Shown one piece after another: positions 1,823 to 4,032 of a stretch of DNA of 64,000 nt (its first letter is position 1; every line of letters starts with the position of its first letter). Location of the stretch: the IMG/VR virus record IMGVR_UViG_3300038443_002533, positions 160,001 to 224,000 of that record; one strand, given 5' to 3'. The notes beneath the pieces were generated by a model, which saw nothing but the letters and a program-made list of their open reading frames with translations, was not told the DNA's origin and did not search any database. A program made the translations under genes and the position numbers. Source of the stretch: a virus. Lineage: Duplodnaviria; Caudoviricetes.

Positions 1823-1874
1823 ACGGCGTACCACCCACTTGACCCCGACCGCAGTCAGGACCAAGTGGTGTAAG

Positions 1875-2225
1875 TTACGGGTTGTACGGCACGGCCAAAC
1901 CGTTGCTGACGAGTTGATCGTTCAGGCTGGTCGAAGTATTCGGCAGATACACATCCGCCAGATAGCGACCATACTTCTCCTTCTTGTCCGCGACGGTTTG
2001 GATCACCACCGGGGCGTTAGCCGGCAGTTGTTGCTGAAGCCAAGCGCGTGAATCTTTCCCGGCTTGGGTGCTGACTTCGGGGGCGTTGATACCGTTGAAG
2101 CGGCAGGTCATGTTGATGTGGATATCGCATCCCAAGTCAACATTGAATTCTGCGGTATCGCCATCGATGACGCGAATCACGGTGGCGTTACGGATGTACA
2201 CATCTTTCTTTTTGGCGGCTGTCAT
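1875..2225 (-). CDS. thermonuclease / staphylococcal nuclease (SNase-like) protein
   Basis: VIRVIDGDT, RFNGINAPE, DKKEKYGRYLADV and LVSNGLA motifs; GGAG RBS upstream on minus strand. Confidence 0.9.
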   Translation of the reverse strand: MTAAKKKDVYIRNATVIRVIDGDTAEFNVDLGCDIHINMTCRFNGINAPEVSTQAGKDSRAWLQQQLPANAPVVIQTVADKKEKYGRYLADVYLPNTSTSLNDQLVSNGLAVPYNP

Positions 2226-2273
2226 GGTGGGCTCCTATGCAAAGGGGGTTCATAGCATCCGCGCAGTACCAAT

Positions 2274-2428
2274 GGTCAAGATGGCGAAGTGGAAGACGCA
2301 GCTGACGCTCCGGGTGCAAGTGATCAGTATTTGAACGAGCAGTAGGGTATCTACCGGGTCCATGATCGGGGCGGGTACTCAGATAAACTGTTCTAGTAGA
2401 ACGGAGGTTCGATTCCTTCTCTTGACCA
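2274..2428 (+). ncRNA. tRNA-like RNA A: Leu-type D arm, 8-bp acceptor, enlarged anticodon loop and variable region
   Basis: GGTCAAGA/TCTTGACC-A acceptor; D stem GCG/CGC; GCTGA/TCAGT stem with 18-nt loop; T arm GGAGG-TTCGATT-CCTTC. Confidence 0.7.
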
Positions 2429-2439
2429 CTCAGTTTTAT

Positions 2440-2515
2440 GGGGAAGTCGCCCAGCAGGTTTATTGACCTGACCCACTGTAGGCACGCGCAGGTGCGAATC
2501 CTGCCTTCCCCGCCA
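2440..2515 (+). ncRNA. tRNA-like RNA B lacking an anticodon arm
   Basis: GGGGAAG/CTTCCCC-G-CCA; T arm GCAGG-TGCGAAT-CCTGC; single extended arm GCC...GGC. Confidence 0.7.
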
Positions 2516-2532
2516 CTCAACCGTAGTACGTA

Positions 2533-2689
2533 GGGCATGTAGCTCAGTGATAGAGCACCGTCCATTACCCTTGGGGTCGCTGGTTCGAGTCCAGCCTGGG
2601 GAGTATGCGAATACTCGCTGGTAGCTCAGATGGTTAGAGCACAAGGCTTGCTTAGACGGAGGTCGTGGGTTTGATCCCTGCCATGTCCA
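2533..2689 (+). ncRNA. tRNA-like RNA C: Ala-type outer tRNA with a nested circularly permuted tRNA
   Basis: GGGCATG/CATGTCC-A (G3.U70); CCGTC/GACGG; inner CCTTG/CAAGG, T arm, GCGA-capped acceptor stem and D arm. Confidence 0.8.
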
Positions 2690-2698
2690 TCAAGAATT

Positions 2699-2807
2699 CT
2701 TAATAAGTGGTAAAGTAGATCAACGCGGAGAACCGACGCGCTACAAGGGATACCTCGCTCTGGTTGGTTCACTGGAACGAAGGAGTTTGACCCTGCCACT
2801 TATTAAG
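2699..2807 (+). ncRNA. 109-nt RNA element closed by a 14-bp terminal stem
   Basis: CTTAATAAGTGGTA (2699-2712) pairs with TGCCACTTATTAAG (2794-2807); internal hairpins. Confidence 0.55.
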
Positions 2808-2826
2808 TGTTTTTAAGTTTCACGTA

Positions 2827-2964
2827 GGGCGTTTAGCTCAGTTGGTAGAGCACGGCTAAAGGTGGGCACCGACAAACCCACACCAGCTTAACAGGCTGGG
2901 GCCGAAAGGCAGTCACCATTCATTAAAGCCGAGGTCATGTGTTCGAATCACGTAACGTCCACCA
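2827..2964 (+). ncRNA. tRNA-like RNA E: Ala-type acceptor with a 69-nt structured insert in the anticodon loop
   Basis: GGGCGTT/AACGTCC-A-CCA (G3.U70); canonical D and T arms; CGGCT/AGCCG stem enclosing 2858-2926. Confidence 0.8.
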
Positions 2965-2973
2965 AGTTTCAAA

Positions 2974-3138
2974 GGGTGTGTAGCTCAGCTGGTAGAGCGT
3001 AGTCATGCAAGATTGTGGGGGTTCGAGTCCCCCCATTCTCTCGATTGGGAATGTGGCGGAATTGGTAGACGCGCCGTTCTAACGGACGGTTATCACATTA
3101 GGCTAAGGTCATGGGTTCAAATCCTGTCACATCCACCA
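2974..3138 (+). ncRNA. tRNA-like RNA F: Ala-type outer tRNA with a nested permuted Leu-like tRNA (96-nt insert)
   Basis: GGGTGTG/CACATCC-A-CCA (G3.U70); TAGTC/GGCTA; inner T arm, CATTCTC/GGGAATG capped stem and Leu-type D arm. Confidence 0.8.
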
Positions 3139-3156: not shown

Positions 3157-3234
3157 AGGGGAGTCGCCAAGTTGGTCCAAGGCCCCGGATTTTGATTCCG
3201 GCATTCGAAGGTTCGAATCCTTCCTCCTCTGCCA
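3157..3234 (+). tRNA. tRNA-Gln(UUG)
   Basis: Canonical cloverleaf, CCGGA-TTTTGAT-TCCGG, encoded CCA. Confidence 0.93.
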
Positions 3235-3956: not shown

Positions 3957-4032
3957 TCCCCGATAGCTCAGCCGGTAGAGCGACGGACTGTTAATCCGCA
4001 GGTCCCTGGTTCGAATCCAGGTCGGGGAGCCA
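3957..4032 (+). tRNA. tRNA-Asn(GUU)
   Basis: Canonical cloverleaf, ACGGA-CTGTTAA-TCCGC, encoded CCA. Confidence 0.96.

Follow-up and report, generated by a model that had tools for sequence, protein, structure and literature searches.

The window analysed here is a 64,000-nucleotide (nt) stretch of viral DNA (bases 160001-224000 of the 272,470-bp record G000, which carries direct terminal repeats). Near its start lie three RNA elements, C, E and F, that combine the upper half of a transfer RNA (tRNA) with the acceptor signature of alanine tRNAs and with a large insert where the anticodon loop would be. We found that the pairs G1-C72, G2-C71 and G3·U70 and the discriminator base A73 are common to all three elements, while acceptor pairs 4-7 differ among them. 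Alanyl-tRNA synthetase (AlaRS) charges any helix that has G3·U70 and A73 whatever the anticodon, including minihelices and transfer-messenger RNA (tmRNA). We give an even chance to the reading that these tRNA-shaped RNAs, which do not decode, would be charged with alanine by the AlaRS of the host, a reading drawn from sequence comparison and predicted folds.

In minimum-free-energy (MFE) folds each element is closed through its own ends by seven of seven acceptor pairs. Element C (2533..2692, plus strand) has the acceptor GGGCATG (2533-2539)/CATGTCC (2682-2688), which contains G3 at 2535 and U70 at 2686; A73 follows at 2689, and then TCA instead of CCA. Its anticodon stem pairs CCGTC (2558-2562) with GACGG (2655-2659), and the outer T loop TTTGATC and the D loop AGTGATA provide the A19-U56 elbow pair. 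Element E (2827..2964, plus strand) is closed by GGGCGTT (2827-2833)/AACGTCC (2954-2960), with G3 at 2829, U70 at 2958, A73 at 2961 and an encoded CCA at 2962-2964; its anticodon stem is CGGCT (2853-2857)/AGCCG (2927-2931). Element F (2974..3138, plus strand) has the acceptor GGGTGTG (2974-2980)/CACATCC (3128-3134), G3 at 2976, U70 at 3132, A73 at 3135, an encoded CCA at 3136-3138 and the anticodon stem TAGTC (3000-3004)/GGCTA (3101-3105). D and T arms are normal in all three, and the 5-bp anticodon stem, perfect or near-perfect, encloses 92 (C), 69 (E) and 96 nt (F) in place of a 7-nt loop. A preliminary description of this DNA had claimed that the three RNAs share the alanine identity set, that they keep GGG/UCC-A while acceptor positions 4-7 differ, and that they have no decoding loop; the folds and the table of pairs bear out the first claim, the stems confirm the second, and the inserts that replace the anticodon loop agree with the third.

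A tRNA-Ala is expected to have a loop of 7 nt that contains U33 and an NGC anticodon, and none of the three elements has one. ARAGORN run without introns did not call C, E or F as tRNAs; with introns allowed, it delimited E and F at coordinates identical to those of the folds. A strict structural scan of both strands of the 64-kb window returned exactly C, E and F; to count, a sequence had to pair at 7/7 acceptor positions, show both a D and a T arm, and enclose at least 12 nt with a 5/5 anticodon stem. Element F was also considered as two adjacent tRNA-like units, since the Rfam tRNA model gives it two partial matches (2974-3041 and 3047-3135; 39.6 and 31.7 bits). The stems of such units contain mismatches, two of them in the unit 3047-3135, and the nested arrangement 2974-3138, with 7/7 outer and 7/7 inner pairs, is preferred. 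It is backed by a homologue (L001:1580-1744) in which the outer, inner and outer anticodon stems all show compensatory changes. All elements share generic modules, namely the D arm GCTC/GAGC and the variable loop AGGTC.

We then asked how specific the acceptor signature is, using as background 424 distinct canonical tRNAs (19 tRNA-Ala and 405 others) called by ARAGORN in loci fetched for this analysis. G3·U70 occurs in 19/19 tRNA-Ala versus 9/405 non-Ala tRNAs, and the full combination of GGG/UCC with A73 in 18/19 versus 1/405. Hence, the signature is nearly specific to tRNA-Ala, and the stems of C, E and F are of the alanine type by the usual criteria. The pair C4-G69, frequent in the natural tRNA-Ala of this sample, is present in C and E too. 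When the outer bodies were compared with 448 tRNAs, the nearest neighbours were tRNAs for Ile, Val, Lys and Ala alike. As no isotype is singled out by similarity of the body, descent from tRNA-Ala is neither favoured nor dismissed.

Relatives of the window were located through a neighbouring gene for a 154-aa protein and through DNA patterns. The metagenome contig L129 (JGI) has four insert-bearing elements and the 271-kb virus G003 (seen as locus L214) has two; all six carry G1-C72, G2-C71, G3·U70, A73 and an encoded CCA. Across G000, L129 and G003 the signature is thus found in 9/9 insert-bearing class-I elements, which have six different acceptor 5' strands, and CCA is encoded in all of them except C. 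In these nine elements pairs 1-3 are invariant and pairs 4-7 vary by compensatory change: comparisons of paralogues gave 0/18 differences at pairs 1-3 versus 15/24 at pairs 4-7. The wobble pair G51·U63 of the same elements drifts to G-C or U-A, whereas G3·U70 never does. This drift serves as an internal control, since it indicates that wobble pairs are not frozen in general. Between the window elements and their orthologues in L129, 1/21 acceptor pairs changed versus 9/30 pairs of the anticodon and T stems (Fisher P-value = 0.03). The top is also retained when other parts of the RNA are exchanged. An insert of the E type sits on an F-like body in L129 (L129:5940-6080) and on a third body in G003 (L214:629-758), and the E-type body bears a nested module of the YrlA (Y RNA-like) type in L129 (L129:5066-5222); the alanine-type top is kept across these swaps. 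The most economical reading would be that, within the sub-lineage of G000, L129 and G003, purifying selection preserves precisely the alanine identity set at the top of the acceptor helix.

The inserts are structured domains. That of C (2563..2654, plus strand) is a circularly permuted tRNA-like module of the YrlA type, composed of a T arm, an acceptor capped by a GCGA loop and a D arm. It scores 31.3 bits against the Rfam YrlA model (E-value 2.5e-4), under the gathering score of 69, as is L129 element iv (49.9 bits). Over 85 nt it matches one of the two YrlA-like RNAs of Vibrio phage BONAISHI with 79% identity. The Rfam alignment of the C insert deletes the middle helix of the model, and the stem by which YrlA binds Ro60 is replaced in C by the entire tRNA body. 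The GNCGAAN0-1G motif of that stem is absent from C, where the corresponding strand reads CCGUCCAUUAC. For seven nested homologues RNAalifold recovered the full double-tRNA architecture, with 20/38 pairs compensated. The junction strand CUUGC of C resembles positions 32-36 of the tRNA-Ala(UGC) loop, and that of L129 element i does likewise; a strain variant, T2653A, was considered as the maker of a perfect Ala loop CUUGCA and rejected, the actual sequence being CUUGCUAA.

The insert of F (3005..3100, plus strand) is likewise a permuted, capped tRNA-like module, with the T arm GGGGG/CCCCC, the acceptor CATTCTC-TCGATT-GGGAATG and a D arm of the Leu type, followed by an extra hairpin (GCCGT-UCUAACGG-ACGGT). 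The insert of E (2858..2926, plus strand) comprises three hairpins, GTGGG/CCCAC, CCAGC-UUAACAG-GCTGG and GCC-GAAA-GGC, and this domain is the one that recurs on other tRNA bodies in L129 and L214. It contains a short frame that ends at UAA within a hairpin loop, as do its homologues in L129 and L214. The peptides of this frame (KVGTDKPTPA, KITVGRRDPTSV and FVGMRTPTPA in the window, L129 and L214 homologues) are not conserved as amino acids. UAA is present in hairpin loops of all E- and F-type inserts (UUAACAG, CUAACAG, UUAAUAG, UCUAACGG and CUAAUCA; window 2885-2899 and 3075-3092, L001:1680-1696, L129:6002-6017 and L214:686-702), where it may be either a loop motif that is conserved or a triplet resembling a stop codon.

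Each RNA has the upper half of a normal tRNA, from the acceptor through the D and T arms to the anticodon stem, and a structured payload replaces its anticodon loop. We propose that RNase P and 3' trimming excise the RNAs from the transcript of the array in the manner of tRNAs. CCA would then be kept or added, and the phage has an enzyme of the CCA-adding type of its own. Host AlaRS would read G3·U70, A73 and G1-C72/G2-C71, this being the sole route of charging that needs no anticodon. Alanylation, probably with binding by elongation factor EF-Tu, might protect the 3' end or give the payload access to the machinery that handles tRNAs. As default purpose we take 3'-end protection and EF-Tu loading, following the proposal made for YrlA (PMC4201824). 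A broader version is possible, and we put it forward with considerably less confidence: this clade of jumbo phages, which has a chimallin-encoding relative, may use the alanine-accepting chassis as a universal carrier of swappable payloads, and the resulting chimeras would be charged by host AlaRS and accepted by EF-Tu or other parts of the tRNA machinery.

Several observations weigh against alanylation. The 322-kb relative G001 (L001:1060-1744 and 2489-2626) has five homologues, of which two, with identical acceptor strands, carry G3·U70, and three have G3-C70. In all five, the acceptor 3' strand is 8 nt long, is followed by A-CCA and has a bulged G that separates pair 4 from pair 5 (3 bp, G, 4 bp); this reading of the strand follows from covariation of the first pair (A-U, G-C, C-G) and from MFE folds. 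The bulge is a change of acceptor architecture across the whole G001 lineage. In the relative G002 (L002/L130), the closest homologue of the C insert, ~82% identical to C over the 5' body and the greater part of the insert, has the acceptor GCGCGGAG/CTCCAAGC, with G-A and C-A mismatches and no G·U, and a Ser-like element of the same genome has A3-U70 and a bulged U. The mark is absent, too, from the insert-bearing elements of L131, L150, Burkholderia phage FLC9 and Ralstonia phage FLC4-3B. A second wobble pair, U50·G64 of the outer T stem (window 2665-2681, 2937-2953 and 3111-3127, and the L129 and L214 homologues), is as invariant as G3·U70 in the nine alanine-type elements; it is absent from the G001 homologues, and the neighbouring T-stem pairs covary. 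To our knowledge U50·G64 is not a determinant for AlaRS, so there may be another reader of the acceptor/T helix. Contigs from the RNA libraries of two root metatranscriptome runs, which match a strain ~97% identical to the window, cover elements A and B of the array described below, tRNA-Gln, tRNA-Asn and the 154-aa gene, and cover C, E and F not informatively; such contigs are unable to show RNA ends and give no evidence either way on expression of the three. Finally, no gene for AlaRS, SmpB, a Fem-type transferase (FemAB) or an aminoacyl-lipid synthase was found in the phage, so that its genes give no clue to the downstream use of an Ala-RNA. The preliminary description had suggested that these RNAs are selected to be aminoacylated and had made conservation of the G·U in homologues a check on this. 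Selection on the acceptor top fits the nine of nine elements of G000, L129 and G003 that keep the G·U while their pairs 4-7 covary; the mark is missing from three of five elements of G001, from G002 and from FLC9 and FLC4-3B. Because conservation is uneven in this way, the alanine marks are real and constrained in one sub-lineage and not essential for the wider family.

The marks could be a leftover of a phage tRNA-Ala gene that was duplicated and took up different inserts, kept by generic constraints (RNase P, CCA addition, helix stability, gene conversion), with charging absent or irrelevant. This would agree with the relatives that manage without the G·U (the three G001 elements, the C homologue of G002, FLC9 and FLC4-3B), with the shared generic modules, with the shuffling of bodies and inserts between genomes, by which recombination among the copies is active, and with the likeness of the CUUGC junction to the Ala(UGC) loop; moreover, the entire acceptor evolves slowly between orthologues, including pairs 5-7, which AlaRS does not read. 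Yet a single transition from G·U to G-C would improve the helix, and G3·U70 is nevertheless unchanged in nine elements with six stems while pair 51:63 drifts. Nor does similarity of the body point to tRNA-Ala, and CUUGC need not be the relic of an anticodon, since the YrlA consensus has CUUG at this place too. On balance we find a leftover rather unlikely. We consider it less probable still that the signature of the acceptor/T helix (G3·U70, U50·G64, A73 and CCA, with the bulged G in G001) is read by a factor other than AlaRS. Candidates are the CCA-adding-type enzyme of the phage, a phage protein for RNA binding or repair, or a host defence toxin that acts on tRNA acceptor ends and for which the RNAs would be decoys. 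The co-occurrence of U50·G64 with G3·U70 in 9/9 elements and its absence elsewhere speak for such a factor, as does the joint shift of the five G001 elements to a bulged G, as if they co-evolved with a partner specific to the lineage and not with the universal AlaRS; in its vicinity the array has genes for RNA-end enzymes (an SNase-like nuclease and an RLIG1-like ligase), and the phage has the CCA-adding family gene. However, roles in decoy and repair are speculative, and the exact match to the AlaRS identity set would have to be a coincidence.

It is very improbable, in our view, that the elements are intron-containing precursors of tRNA-Ala, or that E is a tmRNA-like rescuer, with the insert removed in the one case and used as a tag template in the other. 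ARAGORN does call E and F as tRNAs when introns are allowed, an RLIG1-like ligase gene is nearby, and the frame of E ends at UAA in a hairpin loop, as in L129 and L214. However, a group I intron would need more length than the inserts have, Rfam matches them to no intron or ribozyme family, and excision would not restore a loop of 7 nt with U33 and an Ala anticodon; the inserts are also conserved structured domains with covariation. Neither ARAGORN nor Rfam calls a tmRNA, the phage has neither RtcB nor SmpB, and the putative tag peptide is not conserved. Overall, we favour the reading that host AlaRS would charge C, E and F.

We also searched for relatives more widely. A generic trailer pattern, GTTC...CCAAGTTTCA, gave 119 loci, mostly by chance, and a stricter pattern of T arm plus trailer returned, beyond the known relatives, only ordinary clusters of phage tRNAs. 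In Stenotrophomonas phage Moby the trailer ACCAAGTTTCAA is found after ordinary tRNA-Ala and tRNA-Val as well, and it is therefore a generic spacer outside the signature. A metagenome scan with a conserved 21-mer from upstream of the neighbouring gene found no match; a looser scan with a 17-mer gave 76 loci, among which the only distant relatives were L150 and L178, both without alanine-type elements. Patterns specific to the inserts, and thus unbiased as to the acceptor, revealed no lineage beyond G003. Among cultured jumbo phages, unannotated nested or insert-bearing elements lie in the tRNA clusters of FLC9 (L212:2020-2320) and FLC4-3B (L213:3374-3489). Their acceptors are not of the alanine type, and in one of them the centre of the stem is mismatched (G-A and C-A), as in the G002 homologue of C.

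C, E and F belong to a dense array of tRNA-like elements at 2274-3138, upstream of tRNA-Gln. The entire genome has only two ordinary tRNAs according to ARAGORN, tRNA-Gln (3157-3234) and tRNA-Asn (3957-4032). Element A (2274-2429) has a Leu-like class-II tRNA body (GGTCAAG/CTTGACC) with an insert of ~73 nt and is not of the alanine type; it has counterparts at L002:3486-3646 and L214:940-1090, with 89% identity between the window and G002. Element B (2440-2515) is a 76-nt tRNA-like RNA (acceptor GGGGAAG/CTTCCCC, G73, CCA; Rfam tRNA 25.4 bits) with a good T arm and degenerate D and anticodon arms. Element D (2693-2815), between C and E, is a long hairpin whose closing stem, CTTAATAAGTGG/CCACTTATTAAG, has 12 bp; we found no tRNA features and no Rfam match in this element. 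In the ~97% identical strain, RNA-library contigs join window position 1823 to 2271, so that this strain is without the SNase-like gene (1875-2225, minus strand). They also join the start of element C to the end of F, and the content of the array therefore varies among strains. The best DNA sample source for the window is a rhizosphere sample. A close relative encodes chimallin, the shell protein of the phage nucleus, beside the homologous region, which suggests that the window phage is a nucleus-forming jumbo phage (chimallivirus); chimallin is known here from the relative.

Some phage genes could act on these RNAs. A nucleotidyltransferase domain of the CCA-adding enzyme/poly(A) polymerase family (PF01743, 64.6 bits; 26073..26450, plus strand, equal to G000:186073-186450) lies in a 421-aa open frame, and its product might help to mature or repair 3' ends, including that of C, which has no encoded CCA. 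The genes for the SNase-like nuclease and the RLIG1-like ligase adjoin the array. No gene with a TROVE (Ro60) domain was found in G000, G001 or G002, and the Ro60 protein of BONAISHI matches nothing in G000.

If C, E and F are indeed charged, natural non-decoding RNAs that carry an amino acid would gain a new class, encoded by a DNA virus, beside tmRNA and the tRNA-like ends of plant viruses, and Y-RNA modules would have a use independent of Ro60. Should the carrier reading be true, C, E and F would be the second natural case, after tmRNA, of an alanylated non-decoding RNA. The relatives with a bulged or mismatched stem are natural controls and hint at several 'identities' within one family of phage tRNA mimics. 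The prediction of charging by AlaRS makes this odd array of tRNA-like elements sharply testable.

Alanine minihelices and tRNAs with a transplanted G3·U70, reportedly described by Hou and Schimmel and by McClain and Foss in 1988, are the basis for predicting alanylation of stable acceptor/T helices; those were laboratory constructs, whereas the RNAs described here are encoded by natural, conserved phage genes. Among natural RNAs, tmRNA (SsrA) is charged by AlaRS without an anticodon. Like C, E and F, it forms an acceptor with G3·U70, A73 and CCA from its 5' and 3' ends and has a large structured insertion at the site of the anticodon arm. The phage RNAs, in contrast, retain the D arm and the anticodon stem in full, lack pseudoknots and a conserved tag frame, measure 114-165 nt and occur as several paralogues per genome; as stated above, neither ARAGORN nor Rfam calls C, E or F a tmRNA. 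The stable RNAs species 1 and 2 of phage T4 (rnaC and rnaD) are non-decoding, lie in the T4 tRNA cluster and have tRNA-like ends for processing of the tRNA type. We know of no report of an alanine identity or a Y-RNA-type module in them, and the likeness is one of description.

The YrlA RNAs (RF02553), for which the GNCGAAN0-1G motif has been described (Chen et al. 2014, PMC4201824), are built from the same kind of module as the inserts of C and F, that is, a T arm, a loop-capped acceptor-like stem and a D arm. YrlA of M. smegmatis is cut by RNase P and receives CCA, and it has been proposed that this addition, possibly with aminoacylation, protects the 3' end and allows EF-Tu loading (PMC4201824). 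The phage RNAs differ from YrlA in having a complete tRNA body with free ends of the alanine type, in the absence of GNCGAAN0-1G and of a phage Ro60, and in their sub-threshold Rfam scores. Vibrio phage BONAISHI (MH595538.1) has its two unannotated YrlA-like RNAs at L209:385-504 and 587-698 (YrlA 36 and 59.3 bits, likewise under the gathering score), directly upstream of ORF49c; this gene is annotated as 'RNA binding protein', and we found its product to be a Ro60 orthologue with TROVE and vWA_Ro60 domains. We found no paper on a tRNA body fused to a YrlA-type module, nor on alanine-type jumbo-phage RNAs without an anticodon. In plant RNA viruses the 3' end can fold into a tRNA-like structure, a mimic that host synthetases charge for a purpose other than decoding (PMC7749636, PMC10870377). 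Such a mimic forms the end of a genomic RNA, has Val, His or Tyr identity and closes its acceptor with a pseudoknot, whereas C, E and F stand alone as small RNAs of a DNA phage and have canonical acceptors. The three elements are thus related to known kinds of RNA on several sides: to tRNA mimics, to Y RNA-like RNAs and to non-decoding RNAs charged with alanine.

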